From Elusimicrobiota bacterium (GTDB taxonomy: Bacteria; Elusimicrobiota; UBA8919): a DNA stretch of 64,000 nt. Each line of letters begins with the position of its first letter. The stretch's first letter is position 1. Below, one piece after another: positions 7,007 to 61,076 of the stretch. Below the pieces are notes generated by a model that made no database searches, was not told the DNA's origin, and worked only from the letters and a program-made list of their open reading frames with translations. The stretch is taken from the NCBI GenBank assembly GCA_040757695.1, contig JBFLWK010000005.1, positions 6,899 to 70,898 on the forward strand, in the 5' to 3' direction. Made by a program: the position numbers and the translations under genes.

Positions 7007-7765
7007 ATGACAATAAATACAGAGACACAAGAAGAACTGAATAATGAAGTTTACAAATTAGATAAAGATGCTGACTTAAGTAAAAAGAGCAAAGAAGCAC
7101 TCTGGTATGATGATGCCATACTTCACTATCGTTATCATAAAGCAAAACAGGGATTGAAATATCAGGGCTGGAGTTTAGAAGATTTTGTCAATTTGCATGT
7201 ACTAATCTTACAAGAACTTAAAAAACGTAAATTACCACATTTTGACCGCGATGATGAATTAGATATGGATACAAAACCTTTTTTGAAACAATATGCTCCT
7301 ATTGAACCATCAGGTGAAAAACTTGGTGAACGAATTTATTTGAAAGATATATTACCATACTTTAAAACATTTTTAATCCGTAAACCGTATATCTGGCTTG
7401 TTGGCGGGCTGGTAGTGAATGGCAGTACAGAAGGTGATATTGACTTATTAGTTAATGATTCACCTGATATAAGGCCAGAATTTAAGCATATATTAGAATG
7501 GCGGATAATGAGAAGTTTCCCGAAAGAATACTGGTCAAGATTTCAATTCCATTATAATCAGTTCTGGGGACCATTTACAGATCATCTTCCTTTGTATAAC
7601 TTAACTTTTGAACGTTGTCCTGATACAGAAATTATTCGTATGTCTGCTGATAGTCAAAAAGAAGATATAGAACAATTTATTCTGAAAGATTTTACAAAAG
7701 AAGAACTATTGGAACTTATTTACTGGACAGAAAATAAACTTAAGAGTTTAGAAGAGAAAAAATAA
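7007..7765 (+). CDS. Putative minimal nucleotidyltransferase (Pol-beta superfamily).
   Basis: GG-x9-DID signature (VGGLVVNGSTEGDIDLLV). Stop TAA at 7763-7765 abuts the ATG at 7766 of the ligase / MTase / PE gene. Confidence 0.4.
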   Translation: MTINTETQEELNNEVYKLDKDADLSKKSKEALWYDDAILHYRYHKAKQGLKYQGWSLEDFVNLHVLILQELKKRKLPHFDRDDELDMDTKPFLKQYAPIEPSGEKLGERIYLKDILPYFKTFLIRKPYIWLVGGLVVNGSTEGDIDLLVNDSPDIRPEFKHILEWRIMRSFPKEYWSRFQFHYNQFWGPFTDHLPLYNLTFERCPDTEIIRMSADSQKEDIEQFILKDFTKEELLELIYWTENKLKSLEEKK

Positions 7766-10700
7766 ATGAATATAAAAGATATACTCATTAATTTCAAGAA
7801 AAGATTACTTGAACAACTTGGTGAGCTCTTATTTTTCAAACAAGAAGTGCGAACAACTAATCCAGAGATACAGCGTCAAGCAAAGGCATCATTAAAGGAA
7901 GATAAGATAAAACTATTCAGGTTTTTTATTCCATTAAAATCAGCATTTTCACCATTTATGGCTTACAGATTAGCTGAGAAATATAAGGTCAGCGATGTAA
8001 TTGCACACCTTAAAGAAATTGCTGAAAGAAGAAAATTAGGTACTGAGATACCTGCTGTTATCCTGCAGAAAAAATACGATGGTATTCGTGGGCAGATACA
8101 CAAATCTAAAGATAGAGTTTTGATTCTAACTGATGATGGCACCAATGTAACTGCCCGGCTACCGAATGTAGTTAAAGAAGTTTTAGATATTGAACATCCT
8201 GAAGAATTTATACTTGATTGTGAAATAGAACTCTGGGAGAATGATAAACATCTGCCACGAGAAAAAATTGCCGGATATTTACACAGTAAAGATAAGCCGG
8301 ATGATTCAGAAATCGTGGTAAATGTGTTTGATATCCTCTACTGTTATGATAAAGAAATACAGCATAAAGAACTCAATCTAAATAAAGGTGATTTACATAA
8401 TGAAGCACAGCAAATTCGGTTAAAATACCTCAATTTAATTCAATTTGGACAATCAGTAATAGATGAGCCGGATACAAAAATAAAACTCAATTTAGCACCT
8501 GCGGATTATGTTGATAACATAAAGGACTTAGAAGCATCATTACAGAAATTTGCTAACTCTGCATATTCAGAAGGTTCAATGATTAAACTGGCTGATTCAA
8601 TCTATCCTTTGAACGGTGTAACAACAGAAGTGGTAAAGTACAAAAAATATGTAGATGCACATGTAAAAATTTGGCGTGTGAATAAAACCAAAGTTCCAAC
8701 TGTATTCAATTATGATTTTGCTGTGGGATTCAGGAAAGAAGATTTAGTTGACCCTAAGACAATAGTAAAAATTGGTGATAAAGAATACTCTAAAGCAGGC
8801 AGATCATATAACACTGATGTTAAATGTGAAATCGGTGATGTAATTACTATTCGGTTTCATACCATTAACTTGTATCGCAATTTAGAGACAGGTAAAATTC
8901 GTATACATCTTTATGAACCACGATTTCACGAATTAAGAACATTTCAACAAGAACCAGATATGATTTCGCAGATAATTGAAGTAGGGAGGGAAGCAGGTTT
9001 ACTTGAAGAAAAGACAGAAACCAAAGACCTTGCTTTAGCGCCTGAAATAATTACTGATGGAGAACCAGATGGTGATATTCTCAAGATAAATTATTTAGGT
9101 AACAAACGCAGGTTTGCCAAGCTAATTGTTTCCAAGTTTCCTAAAAATGCAAAGAAAGTGTTTGACCCTGCCTGTGGTTGTTCAGCAGTACTCATGGAAG
9201 CAGCAAAACAAGGATATGAAGTCTGGGGTAATGATATTTCTATTTATCCTTACTGGTTCTCTAAAGGAATCTTTGAAGGAGCAAAACTCAATGAGGAAGA
9301 TGCAGAAAAAATACTTTCTTATAAAAAACACGATGGCTGGCTGACTACAGAATGGCAAGGACAGTATCCTGAAGTTAAAGATTTCAGAAGGATTTTGGAC
9401 GGTCTTGTATTGCAGTCAAAAGAATTTCAGGGAGCAAAATTATGGTCAGTAAGAGCAGTCTTATGCAGGTTTTTAGGAGCATTGTTTGGTGATGTCCCTT
9501 CCTGGTTGTGTGTTGAATATGCTCGTGGTAGAACTCCAAACCTGAAAGTAACCTTAAACAATTCTATTAAAGAGATAAACAGTTACATAGAACAGATTGG
9601 TGGTAAAGGAAAAATAACCAGTGAAGATGCACTTAAAATGAGAATGCCTGATACAGATATTATATATTTTGACCCACCTTATTTCCCTAAAGGTCGTGGT
9701 CCGATAAAATATTTCGCCTGGTATAAAGTAATCAATTCTTTATTACTTCAGAAAGAATGGAAACCTGATGCAGAAGAGTTGTCACCTGAGAACTTGAAAA
9801 TCTTATTAGAAAAACTGTGTAAACATTCAAAATATTTATTCCTATCAACAGAAAGGAATTCTCGTATACCATGGCTAAGTGAATTAAAAAGACATAAAAA
9901 TAAAGTTACTGTCCGAAGGTTATCTTACGAACAGCAATCAAATGTAACAGGTAGAAGTACTCACCAAAGACAGAACCTTATTTCAGGTAAAAGTGCCATT
10001 TTGATTAAACAACAAGATCCATATTTACGTTATCCACCAGAAGATGAAACTTATAGATATGTTGTACAAGAACACTGGCGTGGATCCTCTATGCACAACG
10101 ACTTCAGGTATGAGATTATCAAAAATGAGTTACTATTAGGTTGGACAATAGATTCTTTAATCAAAGGAACAATAAAAGAGCCTATAACAACTTTATCACA
10201 AGCAAAGGAACTTAAATTTGATGATTACTCTAAAATAAACTGGGATACAGGTGAATTTAAGAAACGCAAAAAGAAAGGTGCAGAAAAATTAGTTGATGTT
10301 GAACTTGCTTGTCAAAGGAAAAGTCCGGAACCCTTCGCTTGGTTAGAAGTAGAAGGAGTAGCTCCAACAGGAAGTGTTGGTGCAACCAAAAAATTTCCAG
10401 GCGTGTTTCGTATTGTAGATAAAGGCACAATTGAAGTAGGTGCATTGAAACCCTGGTTAGCAGAATATTTCCCTAAGTCATCTCGCAACCAAGGTGGATT
10501 TAGATACCGTATTTTTTTCAGACAGCTACGCACATCTGCAATTACCGGAAAAGAAAAATTTATTAAATCAATAGAATCACAAAAAATTTATGACGCAATA
10601 AAACAAGCTTTCACCAGCGTTGATTTAAATCCTGAAGATAAAGATTGGGATTTAAGAATTATGGAGACCATCAAGCAAGAGATTAAACCTTTACCTGTAA

Positions 10701-11512
10701 GTGAAACAGAATTTCGTGAAGAAGCAGCGTGGTTTTTAATAAAACCTATTGACCAGACACCATATGTCCTATCAGATAGGGCAGTAGAAGAGTTATGGGT
10801 TTCACCACAAGGAATTTCTGCATTGCCTAAAAGTATTCGTGAAGAGATACCAAAAGAATACAGATACTGGTTATTAGAAGATGAAAAGAACCGTCGTGCA
10901 ATAAGAGATAAATTGGTTTCTGCAATAAAGACAGGAGAATTGAAAATAGATTTTGGAAAACTTACAAAAACATTACAGGATGCAAGATTTGTATTGCAAT
11001 ACCATTATTTTACTAAACGGGGACAAAAACCTGTCCGTGCAGGTGCAACTTATAGTCATTATGACCTGAGAATAGATACAGATAAACCATACTTGATGCA
11101 CTGGGTAATGGATCACAATATAATTGATGCAAACCAAACTGTTGGTTATTACAAAGAAGACAAGGATAAAAAAGTTCTTGAAGTTGGTGGCACGGAAGAT
11201 AAACCTGAATATTTCCCACCGGGTAGTTTACTTAATCCAACAAAAGATACAGCAAGTTTTGTAGTCAAATTGGATGAGGGTAAGTGTATAGTTCTGATTG
11301 ACCGCTATGATTTAAAGAAGGTTCAATTCAAAGGTAAAAAACTACGCGGGTTATGGTTACTTGAAAAAAAGAATGATAACTGGCTCATTGAACGAACTCA
11401 GGCAGCACCTGAAATAAAAGGGAAAGGTTACTTCGTCAGTGCTATACAGAAGGAGGCAGGAACAGAATTATGGACATCAAAGGAATCAATTTCCAGTACA
11501 ATTTTGACATAA
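7766..11512 (+). CDS. Multidomain 1248-aa protein: ATP-dependent DNA ligase (N-terminal), Dam-family N6-adenine DNA methyltransferase (middle), and two LigD-type 3'-phosphoesterase (PE) modules (C-terminal).
   Basis: Ligase motifs: I KYDGIR, III DCEIE, IV EGSMIKL, V VVKYKK. MTase motifs: NYLGNKRR (Dam KWAGGK-like), FDPACGCSAV (FxGxG), DPPY, C-terminal VTVRRLSYEQQSNVTG. PE copies: YVVQEHWRGSSMHNDFRYE, and FVLQYHYF…YSHYDLRID…LRGLWLLEKK. Confidence 0.75.
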   Translation: MNIKDILINFKKRLLEQLGELLFFKQEVRTTNPEIQRQAKASLKEDKIKLFRFFIPLKSAFSPFMAYRLAEKYKVSDVIAHLKEIAERRKLGTEIPAVILQKKYDGIRGQIHKSKDRVLILTDDGTNVTARLPNVVKEVLDIEHPEEFILDCEIELWENDKHLPREKIAGYLHSKDKPDDSEIVVNVFDILYCYDKEIQHKELNLNKGDLHNEAQQIRLKYLNLIQFGQSVIDEPDTKIKLNLAPADYVDNIKDLEASLQKFANSAYSEGSMIKLADSIYPLNGVTTEVVKYKKYVDAHVKIWRVNKTKVPTVFNYDFAVGFRKEDLVDPKTIVKIGDKEYSKAGRSYNTDVKCEIGDVITIRFHTINLYRNLETGKIRIHLYEPRFHELRTFQQEPDMISQIIEVGREAGLLEEKTETKDLALAPEIITDGEPDGDILKINYLGNKRRFAKLIVSKFPKNAKKVFDPACGCSAVLMEAAKQGYEVWGNDISIYPYWFSKGIFEGAKLNEEDAEKILSYKKHDGWLTTEWQGQYPEVKDFRRILDGLVLQSKEFQGAKLWSVRAVLCRFLGALFGDVPSWLCVEYARGRTPNLKVTLNNSIKEINSYIEQIGGKGKITSEDALKMRMPDTDIIYFDPPYFPKGRGPIKYFAWYKVINSLLLQKEWKPDAEELSPENLKILLEKLCKHSKYLFLSTERNSRIPWLSELKRHKNKVTVRRLSYEQQSNVTGRSTHQRQNLISGKSAILIKQQDPYLRYPPEDETYRYVVQEHWRGSSMHNDFRYEIIKNELLLGWTIDSLIKGTIKEPITTLSQAKELKFDDYSKINWDTGEFKKRKKKGAEKLVDVELACQRKSPEPFAWLEVEGVAPTGSVGATKKFPGVFRIVDKGTIEVGALKPWLAEYFPKSSRNQGGFRYRIFFRQLRTSAITGKEKFIKSIESQKIYDAIKQAFTSVDLNPEDKDWDLRIMETIKQEIKPLPVSETEFREEAAWFLIKPIDQTPYVLSDRAVEELWVSPQGISALPKSIREEIPKEYRYWLLEDEKNRRAIRDKLVSAIKTGELKIDFGKLTKTLQDARFVLQYHYFTKRGQKPVRAGATYSHYDLRIDTDKPYLMHWVMDHNIIDANQTVGYYKEDKDKKVLEVGGTEDKPEYFPPGSLLNPTKDTASFVVKLDEGKCIVLIDRYDLKKVQFKGKKLRGLWLLEKKNDNWLIERTQAAPEIKGKGYFVSAIQKEAGTELWTSKESISSTILT

Positions 11513-24993: not shown

Positions 24994-25293
24994 ATGATTT
25001 TTCCAGGTTCAAGATATAAAGGAGTTCCTTATTCAGCAATAAAACTAAAGGATGAAAAAATAGTAACAGTCCTTCATCAGAGACAGTTTGTCAAAAGGGA
25101 AGATATTGGTGAGAACTTTATTATTTATGAAGTTCAGGAAGGAGATGAGTTAGATTTACTTGCTTATAAGTTTGGTGGTAAAGCACGACTCTGGTGGCTG
25201 ATTGCAGATATAAATGAATTAGATTATCCTTGGACATTAAAGCGTGGTCAGAAACTGATTATACCCAGTATTGAAGAATTTGCTAAGAGATGA
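24994..25293 (+). CDS. LysM-like tail protein (P2 gpX-like).
   Basis: 99 aa with a YEVQEGDELDLLAYKF…WW LysM-like segment. Conserved position. Confidence 0.5.
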   Translation: MIFPGSRYKGVPYSAIKLKDEKIVTVLHQRQFVKREDIGENFIIYEVQEGDELDLLAYKFGGKARLWWLIADINELDYPWTLKRGQKLIIPSIEEFAKR

Positions 25294-26510
25294 CACAAAG
25301 TGTCATCCTGAACAGAGTGAAGGATCTCATAATGATAGATCGCAGTCAACCTGTTTATAGGATAAAAATTGAAGGAGTGGATTTAGAAAAGTTCGGTTAC
25401 AACTTTATTGTTGAATCAGTAATGACTGAGGAACATGATACATTAGCAGATATATCTAAAGTGGTGATAGTCAATAAGGACCTGAAATTTACCAATGACC
25501 TTATGTTTTTAGAAAAATCAAAAATGGAAATATTTCTTGGATATCCGGAAGAATTAGAATATAAAGGATGTTTTTATTTAGATGAACCAAAGTTTGTTTT
25601 CCCTGAACAAGGTACACCTAAAATAATTCTATCAGGCAAAGGTGAAGAGATATCGCTTGCCTATTCTGAAAAAAGAAGAGTATTCAGAAACATCACTGAT
25701 TCTGAATTAGCAGAGAAAATAGCAAAAGAGTATGGATTAAAGACAGATATTGAACCTACTAAAAAACGGTATGACCAGATATCACAGATGAATGAATCGG
25801 ATATTGCATTATTACATAGACGAGCAGGATTACATGGATTTTTGGTTTATGTGGAGAATGGAACTTTACATTTTCATCCTGTAAGAAATGAAGATTCAGG
25901 AATTAAACTTACTTATGGTGGTGAGCAAAGTAGCCTGTTGAGTTTTGAAGTTAAAGAACAACTTTTCCTGCGTGCCTTAGAAGTTATCAGCACCTGCAGA
26001 GATAAGTTCAAAAAAACAGTTGTGGATGTATCCAGTGAAAACGAACCCGATGAATTTACAAAAGCTCAATCTGACAGGGATGTAAGAAGGTCCTATGAGA
26101 TAGCCAAAAGTAAACAAGAACAGGCAAAAGGATATCTCTTAAATAGCGGTCATCTGATGGATGCAGAAGAACTTGAAGAGCAGACAAAATCAGCCGGGAT
26201 GGTTTCTCAATGGTTCATTGAAGCAGAAGCAAAATCTATTGGTTTACCTAAAATCAAAGCAAAACGAATAATAGAGTTTGATGGATTAAAGAATTTCAGT
26301 GGGAAATATTATGTAAAAATGGCAAGACATATGATCAGGAATGGATATACTGTTCTTATGGATGTAGGAAGTACTGTTACCGGCAACTTGAGACAGGGTG
26401 AACCTTTGAGTCCTGTGTATTCCAGTTCTGCTGGAACTCGTTTTCCTGACCGAGAAAAAGATAATCAGATAAAAAAAAGCAAAATACTTTCAGTCGCTGA
26501 AATAATATAG
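25290..26510 (+). CDS. Tail / baseplate hub protein (late control gene D-like).
   Basis: 406 aa, after the LysM-like gene. Synteny with P2 gpD / Afp7. Confidence 0.5.
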   Translation: MTQSVILNRVKDLIMIDRSQPVYRIKIEGVDLEKFGYNFIVESVMTEEHDTLADISKVVIVNKDLKFTNDLMFLEKSKMEIFLGYPEELEYKGCFYLDEPKFVFPEQGTPKIILSGKGEEISLAYSEKRRVFRNITDSELAEKIAKEYGLKTDIEPTKKRYDQISQMNESDIALLHRRAGLHGFLVYVENGTLHFHPVRNEDSGIKLTYGGEQSSLLSFEVKEQLFLRALEVISTCRDKFKKTVVDVSSENEPDEFTKAQSDRDVRRSYEIAKSKQEQAKGYLLNSGHLMDAEELEEQTKSAGMVSQWFIEAEAKSIGLPKIKAKRIIEFDGLKNFSGKYYVKMARHMIRNGYTVLMDVGSTVTGNLRQGEPLSPVYSSSAGTRFPDREKDNQIKKSKILSVAEII

Positions 26511-26542
26511 GTGACAAAAATGCGATTTTGTATGAGGTGTAT

Positions 26543-26977
26543 TTATTTGATAGGAATCAAAATAATTTTCTTGTTTTTATTATCAAAATTTACATTAAAT
26601 TTTCTGAAGAAATCTATTCGTCCTAAAATGAATGGAGTTTGTTCATTTTCAGAAAAGAAACATCTGACCTTTGATGTGATATCTCGGATTTTTATCTTGA
26701 TACTGCTGATATATACTTTTACTCCTTTCCCCTCAATCCCATATGAGCGTTCACTGGGACAACTTTTTAAATCAATACCAATCGCCTTTGCCATTGATTT
26801 TGGGAGCATAGAACAATCAGCGCCTGAATCAAGAATAAAAGAGACCGGAATATATCCATACTTTGTTTCAAGTTCAACAGTTATTTTTGGGTCAATGACT
26901 TTACCTAAAGTTGTAAGTTTTTCTTTTAAAGGGAATTCAATAGACACAGATTCTTCCTTTTGGTTCGATGTATTCAA
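26543..26977 (-). CDS. Retropepsin-like (clan AA) aspartic protease.
   Basis: Catalytic FILDSGAD motif (D-S/T-G-A), ~140 aa, ending GRIDFFRKF as in bacterial and archaeal retropepsin-like proteins. Confidence 0.65.
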   Translation of the reverse strand: MNTSNQKEESVSIEFPLKEKLTTLGKVIDPKITVELETKYGYIPVSFILDSGADCSMLPKSMAKAIGIDLKSCPSERSYGIEGKGVKVYISSIKIKIRDITSKVRCFFSENEQTPFILGRIDFFRKFNVNFDNKNKKIILIPIK

Positions 26978-27134
26978 TGGTCAAATTTTTATCACCAAGT
27001 TTTTCTTTGACTTGTTTGAACAATTTATCTGTAGTTTTTTCGGAGGCAACAACTTTGCCTTTGAGAGTTGCAATGAATTTACCACCATATTTTTCTTGAA
27101 GTTGAATATAAGAAAGATGTTTCATTTTTATCAC
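26937..27134 (-). CDS. Small hypothetical protein, middle gene of the antisense cassette.
   Basis: 65-aa ORF tightly spaced between the DUF104-like gene and the protease gene. Confidence 0.4.
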   Translation of the reverse strand: MIKMKHLSYIQLQEKYGGKFIATLKGKVVASEKTTDKLFKQVKEKLGDKNLTIEYIEPKGRICVY

Positions 27135-27144
27135 GCTCCTTTAA

Positions 27145-27375
27145 TTATTTTCCGTAGAGGTATTTGTCATGATTTCTACTAACGTCAGTTCGTCCACTTT
27201 TTATGATGCCACAATATTTTTTAAGTGCCTTCTTTTGAGATTTAACCAATTGTGGTATTTCTTCTTCTGCAGGAAATATCATCAATTGAATCTTTTTGTG
27301 CTCAGGCAATTTAACTTTTTCAAGTGGCCTGAAGATACCATTTTCATAAACTGCTGTAACTGTTGTTTTTGCCAT
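27145..27375 (-). CDS. DUF104 (AF2212-like) antitoxin-type small protein.
   Basis: MAKTTVTAVYENGIFRPLEKVKLPEHKKIQLMIF matches the VYENGVLKPLE…GxKVxV signature. Antisense to the tail operon. Confidence 0.55.
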   Translation of the reverse strand: MAKTTVTAVYENGIFRPLEKVKLPEHKKIQLMIFPAEEEIPQLVKSQKKALKKYCGIIKSGRTDVSRNHDKYLYGK

Positions 27376-27436
27376 GTTTTTAACTTCTTGCTAAATATAA
27401 TATACAAAATATTAAAACAAAAATCAAATAAAAATT

Positions 27437-28627
27437 ATGAAAAAAATATTTTACGGTAAATATGCAGGTCAGGTTTTTGATAATAACGATCCTAAAAAAC
27501 TCGGCAGGATAAAAGCATTGGTTGAGGAAGTGGGTTTTGTCTCTGAACCTACTGACTGGGCCTGGCCATGTGTTTCTCCTTATGGCGGAATCAAAGATAC
27601 TGGCAGTATCTGGGTACCAGAAATCGGTATGAATGTCTGGATAGAATTTGAATCAGGTGATGTAAACAAACCGATATGGTCCGGTGTTTACTGGTCAGAG
27701 CCAGGTGGTAAATCAGAAATACCTGAGTTAGCAAAAGGTATTCCAGATGAATCAACCAGGATACCTAAAGAATTAGACCAGGCAGAAACGGGCTCAGGTA
27801 AGATATTCAATGAGCCACCTTCTGCTTTTGCTGCTAAGTATCCATATAACAAAGTGATGAAAACAAAATCAGGCCATATTATTGAGATAGATGATACACC
27901 AGGACAAGAACGAATACATATTTATCATAAAAGCGGAACATATAAAGAGATAAAACGTGATGGAAGTTTAACAGAAAAAGTTATCGGTAAACTTCACAGT
28001 GTTGTAATTGGCGATGTTGTCCTTCATTATAACAATAAAGTTTATATTGTAGTAGAAGGAGATATTGAAGAAACAAACTACAGAACTAAAACAGTCTACC
28101 TTAAACAAGGATTAAATGAAATTGTTGATGGCCCGATAACAAGGGAATATAGCAGTGACGAAACAATAACAATAAAAGGCAAACGAAGAATAAACTACAA
28201 AGGTGGGATAGAAGAAAATTTCTCGGGTTCAATATCTAAATCAATAATCGGTAGTGAAGCAAAAGTTATCGGTGGTGCTAAAGACACAATGATTTTAGAG
28301 ACAGAAAGAAAACAGATCGGTAATGCATCAGGTCAGAACATAGCAAAATCAGTAGATATTTTATTAGGTGATTATGTGTTAAATTTAATAAGTGGGAATC
28401 AAAAGATAGAACTTAAGTTAGGAGATTTTATTCTTAATTTACTTACGGGTAAGATTGATTTAAAAACACAGGTAGGGAATATTTTAATAGAAACATCCAC
28501 AGGTAATATTCAATTAAATGGTGGTAATACACTTTTTGATGGTGTGGTAACTAAAAGTTGTATGTGTCCGTTTTTAGGTTCACCACATATTGATGGTTCT
28601 ATCAGAGTATTAGCAAAGAAAATGTAG
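27437..28627 (+). CDS. Baseplate central spike (gpV / VgrG-like OB-fold).
   Basis: N-terminal YGKYAGQVFDNNDPKKLGRIKALV is the typical gpV motif. 396 aa. Confidence 0.8.
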   Translation: MKKIFYGKYAGQVFDNNDPKKLGRIKALVEEVGFVSEPTDWAWPCVSPYGGIKDTGSIWVPEIGMNVWIEFESGDVNKPIWSGVYWSEPGGKSEIPELAKGIPDESTRIPKELDQAETGSGKIFNEPPSAFAAKYPYNKVMKTKSGHIIEIDDTPGQERIHIYHKSGTYKEIKRDGSLTEKVIGKLHSVVIGDVVLHYNNKVYIVVEGDIEETNYRTKTVYLKQGLNEIVDGPITREYSSDETITIKGKRRINYKGGIEENFSGSISKSIIGSEAKVIGGAKDTMILETERKQIGNASGQNIAKSVDILLGDYVLNLISGNQKIELKLGDFILNLLTGKIDLKTQVGNILIETSTGNIQLNGGNTLFDGVVTKSCMCPFLGSPHIDGSIRVLAKKM

Positions 28628-28639
28628 GAGATAGAAAAG

Positions 28640-28966
28640 ATGCCACTGAACAGTGCAATACTAAAAAATATTGTTAACCAAGCAATGCCGACTAAAGAAC
28701 AGATAAAGAATGATATCTGGCAGAGTTTACAATCTGCTGGATTTAAACAACACGGGTTTGAAGGAGTACCTGACTTAAAAGATATTTCAGATAAGATCGC
28801 TGAACGGTTATGGCAACATACAAAAGAAACATCTGACATATTATGTGAAAAGATAATTGAACATATTATAACAAATGCAGTTGTGTCAACTACAGTGCAG
28901 GTGGTAATTACCTGTCCTGCGGGACCGGGGACAGGAACTGGTACCGGCACAGGAACAATATCATGA
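28640..28966 (+). CDS. Small spike-associated protein ending in a (Gly-Thr) repeat. No PAAR motif seen.
   Basis: ORF coupled to the spike gene. C-terminal PAGPGTGTGTGTIS is encoded by a hexanucleotide micro-repeat at 28915-28960. Confidence 0.4.
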   Translation: MPLNSAILKNIVNQAMPTKEQIKNDIWQSLQSAGFKQHGFEGVPDLKDISDKIAERLWQHTKETSDILCEKIIEHIITNAVVSTTVQVVITCPAGPGTGTGTGTGTIS

Positions 28967-36609: not shown

Positions 36610-38886
36610 ATGTTAAATAAAATCTGGTTATCAGTCACAGATAGGTGTAACCTGAACTGTAAGTACTGTTATGTTCAGAAAAAGTTCGGTCATATGTCTT
36701 TAGATGTAGCAAAACAATCTGTAATTTTTTTATGTGAAAATTCAGAGCAAGATGAAGTAGCAGTTAATTTTTTTGGTGGTGAACCTTTTATGAACTTTGA
36801 AGTTATAAAAGGTTTAATTTTGTATGGTAAAGAAGCCGGAGAAAAATATGGCAAAAACATCAAGTTTGTAATCTCAACGAATGGCACCTTGTTTACAGAT
36901 GATAAAATGGAATTTTTAAGGAAATATAAGAATACAATAGAGATTGATTTTAGTTTAGATGGAATATGTTCAAGGCAGGACCGCAACAGACCTGCGGGAG
37001 AAGTAGGCAGTTACAGAATGATAGTTGAAAATGATGTGTTAGAGAAAATCAAAGAATTCGATAATGTTGTCTATATAACAATCCTACCAGATAATATAAA
37101 AGGATTAGCAGAAGATGTTGAAGAACTGCACAGGAAAGGATTCAACAGATTTAGGATACAGACCGCAATAAATGTTTTCGGCAATATAGAGTGGAAAGAA
37201 CAAGACCTTAATCAGTATGAGAATGAATTAGAAAAAATCGGCGAGTTATTTATACAGCACTATCTTAAACCTGACTGTCTACAAATATTGGGCTGGAACG
37301 ACTATATAGAGGGAACAGTTAAAGGAGATTATGATGGCTGTGTAGCAACATTAGGAGCAGTTAATATTTACCCGAATGGAGATGTGTATCCCTGCGACTA
37401 TTTTTATCAGACAACAGACGAAAAATGGAAGTTAGGAAATATCTTTAATGAAGTAAATTTAGGTAGGAGGAAGAAGTTAGATAAACTTGTTGAAGAGATG
37501 GTGATAGAAAACGGCTGTTATAAATGTGAGTCATCAGGTAACTGTTTTGAAAAATGTATAGCAGTATTCCTGCAGCATAATAAAAAGAAATACTGCCAGC
37601 AAGAAGTTTCAAAAATAAGAATAAAGGTTTTAGACAAAATAAAAGAAAAATTAAAACCCTGGTCTTTCAGATTTTCAAATTTAGAATTATATGTCACAGA
37701 CAAATGTAATCTGAAATGCGATTACTGTTTTGAGAAATTCAGAAAGCCAGATACTATGTCATTAGAAACCTTAAAGAGAGCCACACAGATAGGTTTTGCA
37801 CGAGCAGAAACCGACAAATTAGATATAACATTTTTTGGCGGAGAACCGATGTTAGAATGGCCATTATTGAAGAAATACATTTTATGGGTTTTAGATGAAG
37901 TCAAAAAATATAAAAAGAAAACTGCATTTATAATGACAACAAATGGTATGTTCTGGAATGATGATATAGAAGAATTTATGAAGAACCACAGTGAAGTAAT
38001 TTTCTGGCAGGTAAGTTTAGACGGAATAAAAAAAATAAATGATAGACACAGAGGTAAAGGAACAACAGATACAGTTGTAGAAAACTTAAAGAAAGCAAGG
38101 AAAATATTCACTGGCTCAAATATAGGAATCAGGGCAACACTGTTACCGGATAGCGTGAAATATCTGTCAGATTCCTGTCGGTTCTTCTGGGAAGATTTGG
38201 GTATCAGAGGATTCTCATTTGCACCGGCTTTTGAATTAAACTGGAAAAAAGAAGATTTGGCTACATTAGCAGACCAGTTAGAGAAAGCATTAGATGTAAT
38301 TGAATTCGGAATAAAAGAAAGAGATGTAATAAATGAGTTCATAAATATTATCGACAGGCCATTAGAATGTAATTCTGGTGGCAGATGCGGTGCTGGAAGA
38401 GGAATGTTATCAGTTACACCTGATGGCAGTATTTATCCGTGCCACAGGTTTTATTGCAGTAATACAAGATACAGGTTAGGAGATGTCTGGAATGGAATTC
38501 AGGATTATGACAGATATGAATTTTTCAGAAGATTAGAAAAAAGGCATTTTATTAAATGCAGTGATTGTGAAATAAGTTATTGCTGTGCCTGTATGGCAAC
38601 GAGTGAAGAAATGACAGGCTCAATACTATTACCTGCAATTTCAGGCTGTCAGGTGTTTGAAGTGATAGATAAAGTTATGTGGTTAAAAGGCTGGCCAAGA
38701 ATAAAAAAAGGAGAAGGTGATTATTCAACAGGGCTGAAAGGAGAAATAGAGATTAAATTAAAAAACGGTACCTTAAAAGCGGTAGATAGAAATGATTTGG
38801 TGGTGCAGACACTAAATAGATTATTAGATGATCAGATGAGTATGCGAGAAAGAATAAACAAAATCAAAGCAGAATTAGGAATATAA
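36610..38886 (+). CDS. Tandem (double) radical SAM / SPASM-domain enzyme, a candidate peptide maturase.
   Basis: Two CxxxCxxC sites (CNLNCKYC, CNLKCDYC), each followed by FFGGEP, DG…DxxR, and SPASM Cys clusters (…CESSGNCFEKC and CNSGGRCGAG…CSDCEISYCCAC). Confidence 0.9.
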   Translation: MLNKIWLSVTDRCNLNCKYCYVQKKFGHMSLDVAKQSVIFLCENSEQDEVAVNFFGGEPFMNFEVIKGLILYGKEAGEKYGKNIKFVISTNGTLFTDDKMEFLRKYKNTIEIDFSLDGICSRQDRNRPAGEVGSYRMIVENDVLEKIKEFDNVVYITILPDNIKGLAEDVEELHRKGFNRFRIQTAINVFGNIEWKEQDLNQYENELEKIGELFIQHYLKPDCLQILGWNDYIEGTVKGDYDGCVATLGAVNIYPNGDVYPCDYFYQTTDEKWKLGNIFNEVNLGRRKKLDKLVEEMVIENGCYKCESSGNCFEKCIAVFLQHNKKKYCQQEVSKIRIKVLDKIKEKLKPWSFRFSNLELYVTDKCNLKCDYCFEKFRKPDTMSLETLKRATQIGFARAETDKLDITFFGGEPMLEWPLLKKYILWVLDEVKKYKKKTAFIMTTNGMFWNDDIEEFMKNHSEVIFWQVSLDGIKKINDRHRGKGTTDTVVENLKKARKIFTGSNIGIRATLLPDSVKYLSDSCRFFWEDLGIRGFSFAPAFELNWKKEDLATLADQLEKALDVIEFGIKERDVINEFINIIDRPLECNSGGRCGAGRGMLSVTPDGSIYPCHRFYCSNTRYRLGDVWNGIQDYDRYEFFRRLEKRHFIKCSDCEISYCCACMATSEEMTGSILLPAISGCQVFEVIDKVMWLKGWPRIKKGEGDYSTGLKGEIEIKLKNGTLKAVDRNDLVVQTLNRLLDDQMSMRERINKIKAELGI

Positions 38887-38887
38887 A

Positions 38888-39118
38888 ATGGAACAAAAAG
38901 AAAAGTATGAGGATATTGTTATCAAAGGATTATGTAGGGTTCTTGATAATCAAAAAGAAATAGTAGAAGAAATAGATAGATTACATAAATTAATTCAGGA
39001 AATCAAGAGGATCGCTGTTGCGACGAATAGGGAGCAACAGTTTTGCGGCGGGCGAGTGACGACACGAGCCCGGGGAGAACAAAATGGATGTAGAATATTC
39101 GAGAATGAAAATGGCTGA
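38888..39118 (+). CDS. Small hypothetical ORF. Its 3' half is GC-rich and structured, so coding status is uncertain.
   Basis: ATG abuts the rSAM stop. The distal part coincides with the hairpins listed above. Confidence 0.3.
   Translation: MEQKEKYEDIVIKGLCRVLDNQKEIVEEIDRLHKLIQEIKRIAVATNREQQFCGGRVTTRARGEQNGCRIFENENG
39015..39075 (+). terminator. Terminator-like hairpin (ctgttgc / gcaacag + TTTT) followed by a second GC-rich hairpin just before the 39084 start. Possible attenuator.
   Basis: 7-bp stem 39015-39021 / 39034-39040, then TTTT 39041-39044. A GC-rich island sits in otherwise AT-rich DNA and overlaps the tail of the 38888 ORF. Confidence 0.4.
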
Positions 39119-39611
39119 AGAATATTTCAACTTGTCTGCTATAAACCAGGCAGATATTAAAACTTATGTAGAAGGCCTAACAGATATCTATCCTGGTAAA
39201 TGGACAAATATAAGAGATTATATTGTCACAACAAAAGGATGTTCAAAAAATTTAGCTTTTGCAATAATGACACACGAATTATATGTTGACAAAGTGAATG
39301 GTATTGTCACTGAGGCAATTATGAATGACTTAATTTCATGGCTAAATACAAACGAGAATACTGAGTATTTAAACAATTACTGGCTTCATTCTTTAATAGG
39401 TTTATTATATTTACATTTCGGTAATGCAGAAAAAGGTATAGCCTGGTACAGACATGCACTCAAAATATATTTTGATAAAGTGGATACAGATAAAAATGCT
39501 ACTGATTCTGCATGGAAAGAAAAAATAGAAGAAGTAGTTAGTACATTAGAAAAAGCAATTTTAGACGGAAACATAAATAGATACGTTCCATTAGAGGATG
39601 TTATAGTATGA
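39084..39611 (+). CDS. Hypothetical helical (TPR-like) protein inside the rSAM cluster.
   Basis: 175-aa ORF, RBS ggggaga. Helical repeat-like …YWLHSLIGLLYLHFGNAEKGIAWYRHALKIY. Confidence 0.45.
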   Translation: MDVEYSRMKMAEEYFNLSAINQADIKTYVEGLTDIYPGKWTNIRDYIVTTKGCSKNLAFAIMTHELYVDKVNGIVTEAIMNDLISWLNTNENTEYLNNYWLHSLIGLLYLHFGNAEKGIAWYRHALKIYFDKVDTDKNATDSAWKEKIEEVVSTLEKAILDGNINRYVPLEDVIV

Positions 39612-39612
39612 A

Positions 39613-39697
39613 CCCCGTTAGACCTTTCCAGGTGTCTGATGGGGCGGTCAGATAGTAATAGAATGAGAAATTAAGAATTAGGAGGTCTAACGGGGTG
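39613..39697 (+). promoter_or_regulatory. 13-bp long-range inverted repeat (accccgttagacc / ggtctaacggggt) that sequesters the SD and GTG start of the U32-like gene.
   Basis: Left arm 39612-39624, right arm 39684-39696. SD AGGAGG at 39680-39685, GTG at 39695. Confidence 0.45.
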
Positions 39698-41023
39698 AAA
39701 TTCGCAATTCCTTTCTGCGGTAGTTTGAAGTTAACTGAGAAGATACTGAATACAGGTAAAGACAAAATAGACTGTGTTTATTTTGACTTGAACTTCCGGT
39801 ATTTAGGTTCAGGCAGAGAACAGTCAGGCTACTTTGGAATTTTAAGGTCAAACAAAGAAAAAAAGAAATGGTTAAAAGATTTTGATGCTCGTATTAAAGA
39901 GTTAATAAACGAACTGCATAGAAGAAATATCAAGGCTTATGGTTTGGTTAATCAATTAGTTTTTACTTATGAACAGACAAAAAGATTTAATGAAATTAAA
40001 AGGTATTTGAACAGAATTAAAGATATCGGATTGGACCGGCTTGTAGTAGCCAATCCTTTTGCTTTAAAGATTGCGAAAGATTGCAATTATGATGTTGAAC
40101 TGTCAGTTAATGCACTGGTGCAGGAGCCAATACAATTGGAATTATTATTACAGTTATTTCCAAATATTAAATCTATGTGTGTTCAGAGAGAGTGGAACAG
40201 AAATATTGACTTAATAAAACAGGTTAAAGAACAGTATAAATTAGAAATCAAGATACTGGTTAATGAAGGATGTCTGCCTTACTGTCCGTACAGAATAGAG
40301 CATTTTTCTTTAATGGGATTATTACCCTATCAGTTAAAAGATGAAAGAGCAGCAGTTTCTGTCTTACAGAAATATGGTTTCTGTTACTGGGTTCACAGAA
40401 AAACGCCAGTATACTCTTTGATGTCACCATTTATAAGACCGGAAGATATTAAACTGTATGAAGGTATTGCAGATGTATGCAAAATATCCGGTAGAACAAT
40501 GGGCGATCCGGTTTTACCAATGTTATGTTCTGCATATTTTAACAGTGAATTTGATGGTAATCTTTATTTCCTGTTAGATGGAGCAACAGATTATGTGAGA
40601 AATAATTTTAAGGTTGATAATAAACATTTCCCGGACGATTGGGGAAAGACAGTCAGTCACTGCAAATATAATTGCAGTGAATGTAATTATTGTTTAAAAG
40701 TAGCAGAGAAAATAATTAAGAAAAATACAAGATTTGTTTTTGAAGCAACATCGGAAGATAAAGAGATAGATGAAAATATTAAACTGGCTGCTTTGAAAAG
40801 GTTGAGTATCCTGGTGAATGATACAATGAAAATAATCTGGGGAACTAAAGTGCGGTTTATAGATTATTTGGATAATGATGATTTAGAGATACAATTATTG
40901 AACTTTTTATTTAAGAGAATTCAATTTATTAATGCATTTGTCAGAAAATTAAGTGCAGTATTCAGGATAATTAGATTCTTTTTGAAAAACAGGTGGATAA
41001 AATGGCTTACGAGTATACGCTGA
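39695..41023 (+). CDS. Peptidase U32-family protein (collagenase / UbiU-UbiV / RlhA-like Fe-S enzyme family).
   Basis: Collinear U32 blocks: KFAIPFCG (ELLAPAG-like), DCVYFDL, IKAYGLVNQLVFTYEQ, GLDRLVVANPFALKIAKD, VELSVNALV, Cys cluster CLPYCPY. GTG start. Confidence 0.7.
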   Translation: MKFAIPFCGSLKLTEKILNTGKDKIDCVYFDLNFRYLGSGREQSGYFGILRSNKEKKKWLKDFDARIKELINELHRRNIKAYGLVNQLVFTYEQTKRFNEIKRYLNRIKDIGLDRLVVANPFALKIAKDCNYDVELSVNALVQEPIQLELLLQLFPNIKSMCVQREWNRNIDLIKQVKEQYKLEIKILVNEGCLPYCPYRIEHFSLMGLLPYQLKDERAAVSVLQKYGFCYWVHRKTPVYSLMSPFIRPEDIKLYEGIADVCKISGRTMGDPVLPMLCSAYFNSEFDGNLYFLLDGATDYVRNNFKVDNKHFPDDWGKTVSHCKYNCSECNYCLKVAEKIIKKNTRFVFEATSEDKEIDENIKLAALKRLSILVNDTMKIIWGTKVRFIDYLDNDDLEIQLLNFLFKRIQFINAFVRKLSAVFRIIRFFLKNRWIKWLTSIR

Positions 41024-41439
41024 CAGATAAAAATCCGTTAAAGTTACTGGTTGAAATAAGTAGTGTTATCAGTAAAAAGTTTGAGTTAACCTATATCGGT
41101 CAGAATGGACTGTTAGTTATAGTAGATGAATTAGATACTACCGAGAAGACAGCACTGGATAATGTAATAAACTTACATACAAACACTTTTTATTTAATAA
41201 AAAACAGAAAACAAAATATCAAAGCAGATGGAATAGACACAGAACATTTAATTGCCTGTTATCCATACCAGCAGGGGGTAGTAGATATTATGATAAATGG
41301 AATTAAACAGAGTGAAGCTAATTTTGATGCTATCGGTATTGTAAAGTATGATTTCAAGACAGCAACACCGGGGACTTATGAAATCCAGTTTAAACAAGGA
41401 ACTCTGATTTCCAATATTGTAACAGTAGTGGCAGAATAA
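40993..41439 (+). CDS. Hypothetical protein.
   Basis: 148-aa ORF between the U32 gene and the B12-rSAM gene. Confidence 0.4.
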   Translation: MDKMAYEYTLTDKNPLKLLVEISSVISKKFELTYIGQNGLLVIVDELDTTEKTALDNVINLHTNTFYLIKNRKQNIKADGIDTEHLIACYPYQQGVVDIMINGIKQSEANFDAIGIVKYDFKTATPGTYEIQFKQGTLISNIVTVVAE

Positions 41440-42719
41440 TGAGAGTGTGTTTAGTTTATATTCCACCAGAGGATAATACAGATGGATGTTATATTTTGAA
41501 TCCGTTAATCGGACCGTATCTTTTAGCAGGAATATTACGTGATAAAGGTTATGAAGTAGAAGTTTTCGATAATTTATGTTTTCTGAATGAGGATTACAGT
41601 GAGTTAGTTAAGAAGATTGCCGAATATGATGTAGTTGGGATTTCGCTTCTAACTTTGTCGTGGTATAAAGTCAGAAAATTCTGTGATGATATTAAAGAAT
41701 TGAACCCGCATATCAGAATAGTTGTAGGTGGGCCGCACACAGTTTATTATGACGGATATATTTTAGAAAATTCTAAAGCAGATGCTGTAATAAGAGGAGA
41801 GGGTGAGAGAACATTTTTAAGATATTTAGAAGGTAAAACAGGGAATGGTATGACCATTAGATTGAACAGTGAGATAATCAGATACCCTGATGCAGAATAT
41901 TTAAGTAAAGAGGAATTCAAAGAATACTACAAACCAGCATATGATTTGATTAAGTATAAGTTTCCATTTCTTGCTGGTGAATTTAGTAGAGGTTGCTGGA
42001 ACAATTGTTTGTTCTGTTCAGTATTATACAGGAATAGATGGAGATGTATGGCAGATGTGGATACAGTAATAGAAAGTTATAAAAGAGATATAAATCTGGC
42101 TGGCAATATGGTTAAAGTGAAAGATGCATGGTTATTGATGGACAATTTGTTGAATGGAGATATTAGATGGGCGACAGAAGTTTTAGAGAGAATTGCGGCA
42201 GAAGGATTAAGAATAGGTTTAGCCTGTGATGTACTGGCATTTCAGGATGAAGGTTTTTTGAAAGCATTCAGAAATTCAAAGATAATATTCTGTACACTCG
42301 GTATTGAATGTGGCTATGATGAAGGACTCCAGAGATTAGGTAAGAAGTTCAGAATTAAAGATATAGAAGAAATTGCTCCCAAAATAGCAGGTGTAGGAGA
42401 AATAACAAGTTCTTTTATAATAGGCTTTCCGTGGGAAACTAAAATAGAAGCAGAAAAGACATTAAGGTTTGCACGATATTTAAGAAAGTATGATTGTTTT
42501 GAAAGTATGAACTGGTGGATCCCATTACCATCAAGGTTATGGTTTAATAGAGAGAAATATAGAATTAAAAATGTGGATGAAAGTATATGGGATGGTTTTT
42601 ATTCATTTAAGAATCCTTTTCACAGTGAATGGAATACAGGGGTTTTTCTAAAGACACATCCGGGTATATCACAGAAGGATTATGAATATTTAGAAAAAAT
42701 AAAATGTGAAGGAGGTTAA
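41439..42719 (+). CDS. B12-binding-domain radical SAM enzyme (class-B-like).
   Basis: N-terminal B12-binding Rossmann segment (VVGISLL…IRIVVGGPHTV), then the rSAM Cys motif RGCWNNCLFCS. Confidence 0.85.
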   Translation: MRVCLVYIPPEDNTDGCYILNPLIGPYLLAGILRDKGYEVEVFDNLCFLNEDYSELVKKIAEYDVVGISLLTLSWYKVRKFCDDIKELNPHIRIVVGGPHTVYYDGYILENSKADAVIRGEGERTFLRYLEGKTGNGMTIRLNSEIIRYPDAEYLSKEEFKEYYKPAYDLIKYKFPFLAGEFSRGCWNNCLFCSVLYRNRWRCMADVDTVIESYKRDINLAGNMVKVKDAWLLMDNLLNGDIRWATEVLERIAAEGLRIGLACDVLAFQDEGFLKAFRNSKIIFCTLGIECGYDEGLQRLGKKFRIKDIEEIAPKIAGVGEITSSFIIGFPWETKIEAEKTLRFARYLRKYDCFESMNWWIPLPSRLWFNREKYRIKNVDESIWDGFYSFKNPFHSEWNTGVFLKTHPGISQKDYEYLEKIKCEGG

Positions 42720-47572: not shown

Positions 47573-47995
47573 ATGAGCAAATTAAAACGGTTCAGTATAT
47601 CACTTGATGATGATCTTGTAACAAGATTTGATAAAGAGATTAGAGAAAAAAATTATCCTACTCGCTCTAAAGCGATAGGAGATTTAATCAGGGAAGATTT
47701 TGTCAAAAAAGAATGGATAGAATGGATAGAAGGAAAAGAAGTAGCGGGAACAATTACTTTGGTTTATAATCACCATAAAAGAGAACTGGTAAATAGATTG
47801 ACCAATATTCAGCATGATTTTCACGATTTCATTATTTCGTCACAACATGTCCATTTAGACTACGACAATTGTCTGGAGATGGTTGTGGTGAAAGGCAAGC
47901 CAAAAGAAGTTGAAAAGTTAGCTCATAGATTAAAATCAACAAAAGGTGTAAAACATGGTTCTTTAACTATGGCAACAACCGGAAAAGAAATATAG
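47573..47995 (+). CDS. nikR: Nickel-responsive regulator NikR.
   Basis: N-terminal ribbon-helix-helix (RFSISLDDDLVTRFD…). C-terminal metal-binding segment QHVHLDYDNCLEMVVVKG…GVKHGSL aligns with E. coli NikR HVHINHDDCLEIAVLKG…GVRHGHL (His87 / His89 / Cys95 ligands conserved). Confidence 0.9.
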   Translation: MSKLKRFSISLDDDLVTRFDKEIREKNYPTRSKAIGDLIREDFVKKEWIEWIEGKEVAGTITLVYNHHKRELVNRLTNIQHDFHDFIISSQHVHLDYDNCLEMVVVKGKPKEVEKLAHRLKSTKGVKHGSLTMATTGKEI

Positions 47996-48149
47996 AAGTA
48001 TTATTTTTTTCTCTAATCGTAACACGATTGTGAAAAATGTATGAAAGGAGGTGGTCCTGATGTGAGAAAGGAGGTTAAAAAAGCACGAAGGCAGCCCTAC
48101 TGAGAAAAGAATTGCCTTCAGCTGGTGCTTAATGTAGTGTTCCAATTTA

Positions 48150-48215
48150 TTGGAACAAGAACCTAAGCCCATAGAAATTATACTAAATTTGTGGGCTAAA
48201 AACAAAGAAAAAGGA
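48150..48215 (+). promoter_or_regulatory. Copy F of the hairpin + ACAAAGAAAAAGG motif, upstream of the TonB-dependent receptor. This copy lies outside the prophage.
   Basis: agcccataga…tgtgggct imperfect inverted repeat, then aaaaacaaagaaaaaggag before the ATG at 48226. Confidence 0.4.
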
Positions 48216-48225
48216 GAAGAGAAAA

Positions 48226-50211: not shown

Positions 50212-50232
50212 AGGAGCGATAGAACTGAGATA

Positions 50233-51102
50233 ATGAATAAAAAAGTCTGGGCAGGGATAATATTTATTGTTATCCTTGCCATGAGCCTTAGTATTTTTTT
50301 ATACAGGACCAGGAAACACGAAAAAGAGAAAGAAAAAAAACATATCTATGAAAGAATTGTTTCTCTTTCCTGTACTACAGAAATTCTCTGTGATTTGGGT
50401 GCAGAAGATAAGATTGCAGCTATATCTGGCATAGAAAAAGAGAGTCCTTATTATGAAACTCTAAAACTTAAACCGAAATGTGGTGGAGATATCAGAAATG
50501 TCAATTTAGAGAAGGTTTTAGGATTTCAACCAGACCTGGTTTTTTGCTGGGAAACTCAGGCAGATACCTTAAAGGAAAGAGGATTAAATGTTTATGCCAC
50601 AAAGACCTATGATATTGAAGGTGTAATGGAGCTAATTATGAATGTAGGAATATTAGCTGGGAAGGAGACAGAGGCGAAAAGAATTGTTTCTGCTATGAGA
50701 GAAAAAATAGATAAAATAACTAAAAAGGTGAAAGAAATAAAGCATAAACCATTAGTATATTTTGAAGCACATGCTTTAGGAAAAACAAGAAGTGCTGGTT
50801 CTCTTACCCACGATTTAATTACCAGAGCAGGTGGAATAAATATTGCTAAGGATGAACCTGTTCCTTTCCCACTTCTTTCACAGGAATTTATAATTGAAAA
50901 AAATCCTGATATAATTATTGTAGAAGAATATGGGGATATACCACAAGAGATAAAGAGAAGAGATGGCTGGCAAAATATAAAGGCTGTGAAGAATAACAGG
51001 GTTTATAGAAGTTATATTTATTTCACTAATTATACCCCAAGATGTATTGAAGGTTTAGAACAGTATGCCAAATGGTTTCACCCTGAGGTATTTAAACAAT
51101 GA
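50233..51102 (+). CDS. ABC-transporter periplasmic substrate-binding protein (BtuF / FhuD-like class).
   Basis: Signal / TM anchor, ~290 aa, within a BtuFCD-like gene set. Confidence 0.7.
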   Translation: MNKKVWAGIIFIVILAMSLSIFLYRTRKHEKEKEKKHIYERIVSLSCTTEILCDLGAEDKIAAISGIEKESPYYETLKLKPKCGGDIRNVNLEKVLGFQPDLVFCWETQADTLKERGLNVYATKTYDIEGVMELIMNVGILAGKETEAKRIVSAMREKIDKITKKVKEIKHKPLVYFEAHALGKTRSAGSLTHDLITRAGGINIAKDEPVPFPLLSQEFIIEKNPDIIIVEEYGDIPQEIKRRDGWQNIKAVKNNRVYRSYIYFTNYTPRCIEGLEQYAKWFHPEVFKQ

Positions 51103-52106: not shown

Positions 52107-52108
52107 AA

Positions 52109-53895: not shown

Positions 53896-53897
53896 TT

Positions 53898-59293: not shown

Positions 59294-59314
59294 AAAAAGA
59301 AGGAGAAAAAAATA

Positions 59315-60873: not shown

Positions 60874-61076
60874 GGTTCTGATACACCGGCTAAAGTTCGG
60901 GTCTTTAAAATTCTTTTATTTTTTGTACAATATATTTGTCAGGTGTGGATTGGTCTTTTTCATAGCGATAAACAGTTATCTTATTGAGCCATGGCTATAC
61001 GCTCCTTTTTGGTTTTTTTTCAGTGGTAATTCTTCCAATAAAACCATTCAAATTTTTTCTGAAAAATTTTTTTTGC

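Follow-up and report, generated by a model that had tools for sequence, protein, structure and literature searches.

A stretch of 64,000 nucleotides (nt) from an Elusimicrobiota metagenome-assembled genome (MAG), covering positions 6,899 to 70,898 of the 73,306-bp contig JBFLWK010000005.1 (assembly GCA_040757695.1) and hereafter called the window, carries within a phage tail operon a cassette of three minus-strand genes that encode an AF2212-like (DUF104/COG2880) protein, a DUF5678 protein and a retropepsin-like aspartic protease. We show that the interval occupied by these genes is a 0.93-kb antisense moron of a myovirus prophage, inserted where translational coupling joins the gpD-like gene to the spike gene. 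Comparative analysis further showed the cassette to be a chimera of two toxin–antitoxin (TA)-type pieces, namely a vapB-type antitoxin gene with its promoter and a DUF5678–retropepsin pair that stands in the place of the PIN toxin gene. Our preferred interpretation, to which we assign a probability of about 0.5, is that a captured orphan VapB-type antitoxin/repressor drives a TA-like or abortive-infection-like pair composed of DUF5678 and the protease. TA-like morons are already common in prophages; the points that stand out here are the wide conservation of the DUF5678–retropepsin pair and the exact replacement of a PIN gene behind a captured vapB promoter.

Gene content and organization of the cassette

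Three co-oriented and tightly packed open reading frames (ORFs) were identified on the minus strand at positions 26543-27375. A previous interpretation made from the letters of this DNA (the sequence-only reading) had placed three such genes between the gpD-like and spike genes, and both the ORFs and the NCBI calls agree with it. The cassette comprises the following features:

27145..27375, minus strand: AF2212-like (DUF104/COG2880) gene, predicted VapB-type antitoxin, 76 aa; PF01954, E 6.7e-12, 46.1 bits against a cutoff of 21.6
26937..27125, minus strand: DUF5678 gene, 62 aa from the ATG (65 aa from an upstream GTG); PF18929, E 2.7e-12, 46.7 bits against 23.2
26543..26947, minus strand: retropepsin-like aspartic protease gene, 134 aa from a GTG; PF13650, E 5.4e-9, 37.1 bits against 24.3; PF13975, E 5.4e-8, 33.8 bits against 28.2
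26937..26947, minus strand: overlap of the DUF5678 stop and the protease GTG start, 11 nt, GTGTCTATTGA, read from the sequence

The NCBI annotation of the source contig contained identical proteins of 76, 62 and 134 aa, named, in this order, antitoxin family protein, DUF5678 domain-containing protein, and retropepsin-like aspartic protease. The matches to PF01954, PF13650 and PF13975 all exceeded the gathering scores, and the family identities proposed for the first and third genes were thereby upheld; none of the three genes matched the PHROGs collection. The AF2212-like and DUF5678 genes were separated by 19 nt, and the ATG of the latter was preceded by an AGGAG ribosome-binding site located 10 nt 5′. 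The GTG start of the protease has AAGGAAG in front of it, and the mechanically delimited ORF, beginning at the TTG at 26977, would encode 144 aa. The 11-nt overlap between the DUF5678 and protease genes implies that their translation is probably coupled. Both junctions between the tail genes and the cassette were recovered in an independent Logan assembly (L001); the arrangement is therefore no assembly chimera.

Insertion between the gpD-like and spike genes

The position of the cassette within the tail operon was defined by comparison with the relative L012 (IMGVR_UViG_3300039302_000015), the only syntenic one found in the viral scans. The features at the insertion site are:

25290..26510, plus strand: gpD-like baseplate hub gene; PF05954 (weak) and phrog_52 tail protein, E 4.6e-23
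26511..27436, no strand: inserted interval from the gpD-like stop to the spike start, 926 nt, the moron; from the comparison with L012
27437..28627, plus strand: gpV-type spike gene; PF04717, E 7.4e-18; phrog_430, E 8.6e-43

The tube, LysM, gpD and spike genes follow one another in L012 as they do in the window, and the gpD and spike proteins of L012 are 42% and 52% identical to those of the window, respectively. The last two genes overlap in L012, sharing the ATGA at 7230-7233 as gpD stop and spike start, and the cassette is missing, in contrast to the 926-nt gap observed in the window. This comparison confirmed the moron-like placement and orientation suggested earlier, and both tail genes of the split coupled pair were left intact by the insertion. 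Two scans of metagenome contigs, performed with the gpD-like protein and its alignment, yielded no further syntenic phages. All three cassette genes were absent from the 42 other spike-bearing viral loci (42/42). The protease had no match in IMG/VR, INPHARED or PLSDB, the DUF5678 protein had none in IMG/VR, and the AF2212-like protein had none in IMG/VR or INPHARED; the INPHARED searches covered 50,697 phage genomes. At the insertion site, the search for repeats returned short AT-rich matches and no meaningful flanking repeats. A perfect 10-nt inverted repeat, TTTATTTGAT/ATCAAATAAA (26542-26551 and 27423-27432), brackets the cassette almost exactly; it was rejected as an insertion signature, being close to chance expectation in AT-rich DNA.

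Origin of the AF2212-like gene

In addition to its Pfam match, the AF2212-like protein matched AF_2212 in the PDB (2nwt, E 8e-5). The COG2880/DUF104/AF2212 family is a predicted AbrB-superfamily antitoxin of PIN toxins (Makarova et al., PMC2701414, where toxin–antitoxin family associations are tabulated). The closest relatives, 72-82% identical, are chromosomal and belong to Elusimicrobia and Goldbacteria. For instance, P0017 (82%, from a Goldbacteria MAG) and P0023 (72%, Elusimicrobia CG1_02_37_114) are followed 4 nt downstream by a gene for a 133-aa PIN protein, and P0025, a 54% relative, by one for a 136-aa PIN protein; P0016 and P0022 are chromosomal orphans lacking a PIN gene. When the DNA was aligned, similarity to the chromosomal loci began approximately 60 nt 5′ of the start codon and ended right after the stop codon. 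The aligned segment takes in the ribosome-binding site and a promoter-like element of the form TTGAYT-17 nt-TATAYT, whose version in the window is:

27399..27427, minus strand: promoter-like site TTGATT-17 nt-TATATT, upstream of the AF2212-like gene; consensus scan

The alignment showed that this -35/-10 pair with its 17-nt spacer is kept in register upstream of three chromosomal homologues. In the window, the ribosome-binding site of the DUF5678 gene occupies the position at which the chromosomal loci have the start of their PIN gene. Because homology ends at the antitoxin stop codon, the PIN gene has been replaced exactly; no PIN gene was detected in the window by tblastn with three PIN partners (best E 6.8). 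Compared with the chromosomal copies, the gene exhibited a ratio of nonsynonymous to synonymous substitution rates (dN/dS) of 0.07-0.16, with a more conserved C-terminal half in which residues S66, H69, D70, Y72, L73, and Y74 were invariant. Taken together, these comparisons show that a predicted vapB-type antitoxin gene was taken from a bacterial AF2212–PIN locus together with its promoter and ribosome-binding site.

Conservation and genomic contexts of the DUF5678–protease pair

Thirteen homologues of the protease were retrieved at 44-59% identity, and in all five annotated contexts (5/5) a DUF5678 gene was situated directly upstream, overlapping the protease start. A scan using one genome per species gave 32 protease loci, 31 of them assessable, and a DUF5678-type ORF was located directly upstream on the same strand in 22 of the 31. 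The 32 loci were distributed among Nitrospirota, Omnitrophota, Planctomycetota, Chloroflexota, Bipolaricaulota, Microgenomates of the candidate phyla radiation (CPR), Micrarchaeota, and Methanobacteriota, and the pair spans at least seven bacterial and archaeal phyla. Across loci, the identities of the DUF5678 proteins (43-54%) track those of the proteases (42-53%). No AF2212-like gene accompanied the pair in any of the five annotated contexts or the 32 genome loci, the hidden Markov model (HMM) used for the latter being narrow; in L008, an AF2212-like gene was found nearby, but within its own PIN pair on the other strand.

The contexts of the pair were heterogeneous, and a pooled Pfam scan of 150 neighbouring ORFs revealed no recurrent third neighbour family. 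Individual neighbours include HicA/DUF2283, an AF2212+PIN pair, TraG/TraH, AAA_15/AAA_21 ATPases, and transposases. Disrupted protease copies were also present in some loci. In two Chloroflexia loci, L080 (3995-4402) and L091 (3995-4401), a stop codon or frameshift interrupts the protease ORF, which points to module decay, and on a Dehalococcoidia chromosome (L083, 1917-7595) fragments of the protease alternate with three DDE transposase copies, again a sign of decay. A Nitrospirota-type contig bearing the pair (L002) has, at 8967-9390 on the minus strand, a second DUF5678 gene (88 aa); the gene after it encodes 63 aa and no protease, so that other partners of DUF5678 may exist too.

These results show DUF5678 and the protease to be a self-contained and overlapping two-gene module found in variable contexts across many bacterial and archaeal phyla. 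The pair exhibits generic traits of type II TA systems, being composed of two small, adjacent, co-oriented and overlapping genes that are kept together, and having a patchy, horizontally mobile spread in variable contexts, next to TA and conjugation genes. The sequence-only reading had taken the AF2212/DUF104 protein for the antitoxin of the protease within a single three-gene system, and here it did not hold: the conserved partner is DUF5678 (5/5 and 22/31 contexts), the nearest AF2212-like relatives are vapB-type genes preceding PIN genes, and the PIN gene was replaced exactly at the stop codon. Its broader proposal of a TA or abortive-infection module survives in part, since a TA-like character of the protease module is plausible and the role given to the AF2212-like protein as its antitoxin is not supported.

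Properties of the protease and the DUF5678 protein

Regarding the protease, residues D40, G42, A43, and D44 of the DSGAD motif and L108 and G109 of the ILGR motif were invariant in 14 homologues. The AlphaFold2 model reached a mean predicted local distance difference test score (pLDDT) of 92.0 and a predicted template modelling score (pTM) of 0.81, and the top Foldseek matches, with a probability of 1.00, were APRc (5c9f), the proteases of feline and human immunodeficiency viruses and equine infectious anaemia virus (FIV, HIV, EIAV), and the RVP domain of Ddi1. It had been considered that the protein might lack the second catalytic features and be inert; the second motif is present as ILGRID, within a confidently predicted retropepsin fold. 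Neither a signal peptide nor a transmembrane segment was predicted, as for a cytoplasmic protein. By its motifs and model, the enzyme looks active. The NCBIfam subfamilies of clan AA remained below their cutoffs (TIGR03698, 22.1 vs 57.35 bits; TIGR02281, 18.6 vs 57.95 bits).

The DUF5678 family comprises approximately 199 clusters at 50% identity, and a search with the family profile showed that nearly all members are stand-alone proteins of 60-100 aa; the long matches in this search were repeat proteins, for example carrier-protein arrays. Among close homologues, the C-terminal EYIEPKGxICVY is invariant, and it is partly dual-coded with the protease start. The model of the window protein (pLDDT 71) consists of three N-terminal strands, one helix, and two more strands. 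An initial likeness to ubiquitin (phmmer against the PDB, polyubiquitin E 1e-10) was discarded: no single stretch passed, the likeness vanished with an 81-sequence family profile, which returned other tandem-repeat proteins instead, and hhalign against ubiquitin gave a probability of 0.2%. The signal was an artefact of weak matches summed over repeats.

In two family members, P0040 (90 aa) and P0063 (103 aa), the DUF5678 sequence seems to read through into the conserved N-terminal part of the protease without a change of frame (..VEFPLVNKRTSFG.. and ..RIEFPLRQIRTEFG..). Such putative read-throughs could represent real fusions, but also frameshift variants or contigs that are cut short, and they hint at a possible physical or pro-domain relationship between the two proteins.

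Proposed mechanism and alternative explanations

According to the interpretation that we favour, the captured promoter would drive leftward transcription of all three genes, independently of late tail transcription, and the AF2212-like protein would repress this promoter. The same protein could also neutralise VapC/PIN toxins of the host in trans, which is possible because the conserved toxin-binding C-terminal half has been retained. Translational coupling would fix the ratio of DUF5678 to protease, and DUF5678, acting as an inhibitor or as a cleavable partner, would keep the dimeric cytoplasmic aspartic protease inactive. If DUF5678 were depleted or displaced, either by loss of the prophage or by transcription shut-off imposed by a superinfecting phage, the protease would be freed and could cut cellular or phage proteins, leading to growth arrest. 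Such an arrangement would constitute a protease-based addiction or abortive-infection system.

Several observations weigh against this proposal. Toxicity of the protease and its inhibition by DUF5678 are points that we infer from gene architecture only, and the characterised bacterial retropepsin-like enzymes (APRc, RimB, and the Rlo proteases) are not toxins. All three cassette proteins are basic. The DUF5678 model had no significant match in the PDB, resembling uncharacterised phage or viral proteins only, and displayed no fold that could be recognised as DNA-binding or inhibitory; of 81 DUF5678 proteins, none (0/81) matched PDC-M52A, the partner in the candidate defence system PDC-M52 of PADLOC, or convincingly any other PADLOC model. 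Concerning the surroundings, the consensus scan for the promoter is by itself at chance level, no terminator was detected 3′ of the protease gene, and the neighbours of the pair in other genomes are mostly housekeeping genes and not defence islands. Finally, a pro-domain or processing relationship would account for the putative read-throughs P0040 and P0063 more readily than a classical TA system would. The housekeeping neighbours and these read-throughs also speak for a non-toxic regulatory or processing pair, in which DUF5678 would serve a specific protease as substrate, pro-domain or activator, much as in ImmA/ImmR or RimB/RimK. The role of such a pair in the prophage would be to process a regulator or to inactivate a defence protein of the host, and the AF2212-like gene would be an independent anti-VapC decoy. 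RimB (PMC11957791) and APRc (PMC4140852) are indeed specific processing enzymes working with partner proteins, the association of a protease with a small regulator has a precedent in the COG2856–Xre cassettes (PMC2701414), and the invariant C-terminus of DUF5678 could be a recognition or cleavage site. We consider this explanation quite possible, but less likely than the favoured one: the patchy spread across phyla, the variable contexts, the TA and conjugation neighbours, and the occasional pseudogenisation are more typical of selfish or defence modules, and no conserved third gene that could encode a substrate was found.

The remaining explanations concern the cassette as a whole. A single tripartite system, with the AF2212-like protein as antitoxin or regulator of a protease toxin and DUF5678 as an accessory adaptor or chaperone, would agree with three co-oriented genes tightly packed behind one promoter-like site and with the purifying selection acting on the AF2212-like gene. 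The evolution of TA systems is also known to include swaps of the toxin that accompanies an antitoxin family, which speaks for such a system. We regard it as improbable, given that no AF2212-like gene occurs with the pair in the five annotated contexts or, with the narrow HMM, in the 32 genome loci, the gene seen in L008 belonging to its own PIN pair on the other strand, and that the closest AF2212-like relatives pair with PIN or stand alone. Moreover, the toxin-binding C-terminal half is nearly unchanged from the PIN-linked copies, so the protein does not seem to be adapted to a new partner. Alternatively, the cassette could be passenger DNA acquired by illegitimate recombination, a functionless and neutral cargo heading to decay. 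The absence of its genes from the other viral sequences searched suggests a recent one-off acquisition and would suit this idea, as would the lack of a detected terminator and of clear insertion repeats. Still, the three intact ORFs with ribosome-binding sites and preserved coupling, the intact catalytic residues, the dN/dS of the AF2212-like gene, and an insertion that splits a translationally coupled tail gene pair and destroys neither gene make it very improbable. As for the opposite strand, the ORFs at 26511-27182 and 27169-27459 are long and would continue the strand of the tail operon, which could mean that these are the real genes and that the minus-strand ORFs arose by chance. The chance of this being so is practically negligible and the homology evidence refutes it: the plus-strand ORFs had no Pfam match and gave low-complexity translations rich in Phe and Ile, as opposed to the significant Pfam matches and dozens of homologues of all three minus-strand ORFs, and both GC and AT skew reversed their sign over the interval, as expected for opposite-strand coding. 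The plus-strand ORFs had already been judged probably spurious in the sequence-only reading, and the lack of a family match bears this out.

Taking the proposal of a captured antitoxin and a DUF5678–protease module one step further, it is possible, although we put it forward only tentatively, that DUF5678–retropepsin pairs constitute a new and phylogenetically wide TA or abortive-infection family with a cytoplasmic aspartic protease as effector, one copy of which was wired here behind a stolen vapB promoter and antitoxin. If so, aspartic proteases would represent a toxin class not yet described, and a single moron would serve in counter-defence by disarming VapC toxins of the host and would at the same time equip the lysogen with a switch for suicide or exclusion that is based on the protease. 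A TA or abortive-infection role of the pair would also provide a function for DUF5678, a family of about 200 sequence clusters in bacteria and archaea, including CPR and DPANN lineages. The exact replacement of PIN behind a captured antitoxin and promoter offers a snapshot of the shuffling of TA parts by phages and hosts, and the possible neutralisation of host VapC toxins in trans by an orphan antitoxin is a testable counter-defence idea. If the pair is not a toxin module, the cassette would be another moron of an uncultivated phage. A search of one literature library found no paper on DUF5678, PDC-M52 or retropepsin-type toxins.

Other features of the prophage

The phage in the window is contractile-tailed, with a myovirus tail operon. 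Its head part comprises genes for a terminase, a portal, a MuF-like protein, an S78 prohead protease, and a capsid protein; these are followed in the tail part by genes for the sheath, a gp19-type tube, the tape measure, a CIS_tube protein, a LysM protein, and the gpD-like hub. Located 3′ of the hub gene are the cassette and then the gpV-type spike, gp25, J, and I genes. An amidase gene lies at 43.7 kb, with host-like metal-uptake genes after it. No tRNA genes were found in the window. Further features are:

47573-63363: genes of host type (NikR, a TonB-dependent receptor, a periplasmic binding protein, a FecCD ABC transporter, CobN, a chelatase, and TonB), then the two genes listed next
61077-61553, minus strand: repressor-like gene with a double helix–turn–helix (HTH)
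61516-63363, minus strand: large serine recombinase, 615 aa

Given the HTH repressor-like gene and the large serine recombinase at 61-63 kb, the phage is likely an integrated prophage. Other genes of this region drew our attention for reasons of their own. Directly behind the tail-fibre genes and ahead of the amidase gene (36610-42719) are genes for a double radical-SAM/SPASM protein of 758 aa, a peptidase U32-like protein, and a radical-SAM protein that binds B12, an unusual cargo for a phage late region that could be a peptide- or nucleoside-modification cluster. In the head-morphogenesis region, a single 1248-aa ORF (7766-11512) contains both an ATP-dependent DNA ligase domain and an N6-adenine methyltransferase domain of the D12 class. 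The MuF-like protein (741 aa, 4452-6677) bears Rho_N repeats and a weak C-terminal match to an anthrax lethal factor domain (PF07737, E 2e-4), and it may be a capsid-packaged polymorphic toxin of the MuF type. Situated 3′ of the spike gene, an ORF of 108 aa (28640-28966) closes with a Gly-Thr repeat, PAGPGTGTGTGTGTIS, and was matched by neither PAAR nor any other Pfam family; at the corresponding position, L012 has a small Cys-rich ORF.

Comparison with known systems

Like known prophage morons, the cassette is additional DNA that separates conserved late genes, runs against their direction, carries a promoter-like element of its own and is absent from a syntenic relative; it differs in having no detected terminator and a base composition that is not clearly deviant. 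With the type II TA systems formed by VapB (AF2212-like/COG2880/DUF104) and VapC (PIN), it has in common the family membership of the first gene, the promoter, the ribosome-binding site, and the conserved C-terminal half. In contrast to these systems, a PIN gene is missing here and the toxin position is held by an unrelated two-gene module.

Regarding the candidate defence systems of PADLOC, the window protease matched PDC-M52B (E 3.4e-7), as did 11 of 14 protease homologues over nearly the full length of the profile, with E down to 1e-7; candidate defence loci are thus already on record as containing retropepsin-like proteins. PDC-M52 itself is an unvalidated candidate, its partner differs from DUF5678, and the AF2212-like and DUF5678 genes of the window had no PADLOC match.

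The cassettes formed by a COG2856 (ImmA/IrrE) zinc protease and an Xre repressor resemble the pair in their two-gene organization, with a small protein and a protease of approximately 130-160 aa. They are common on mobile elements and prophages, are sometimes fused, and are sometimes linked to PIN or RelE toxins (PMC2701414). The pair described here differs from them in the predicted aspartic instead of zinc catalysis and in a DUF5678 protein without an HTH, and repressor cleavage is not part of its known features.

Among characterised enzymes, APRc of Rickettsia, RimB of Pseudomonas, and the Rlo proteases of P. aeruginosa have in common with the window protease the single-lobe clan AA fold and the D-S/T-G-A and hydrophobic-hydrophobic-Gly motifs. 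APRc (PDB 5c9f) was the best structural match (Foldseek E 6e-6, TM-score 0.66), with a protein identity of only 14-18%. Like RimB, the window protease is a predicted cytoplasmic enzyme that would act together with a partner protein. It differs from this group in having neither a membrane anchor nor a signal peptide, and what further sets it apart is the dedicated small partner, DUF5678, together with the TA-like genomic behaviour of the pair.

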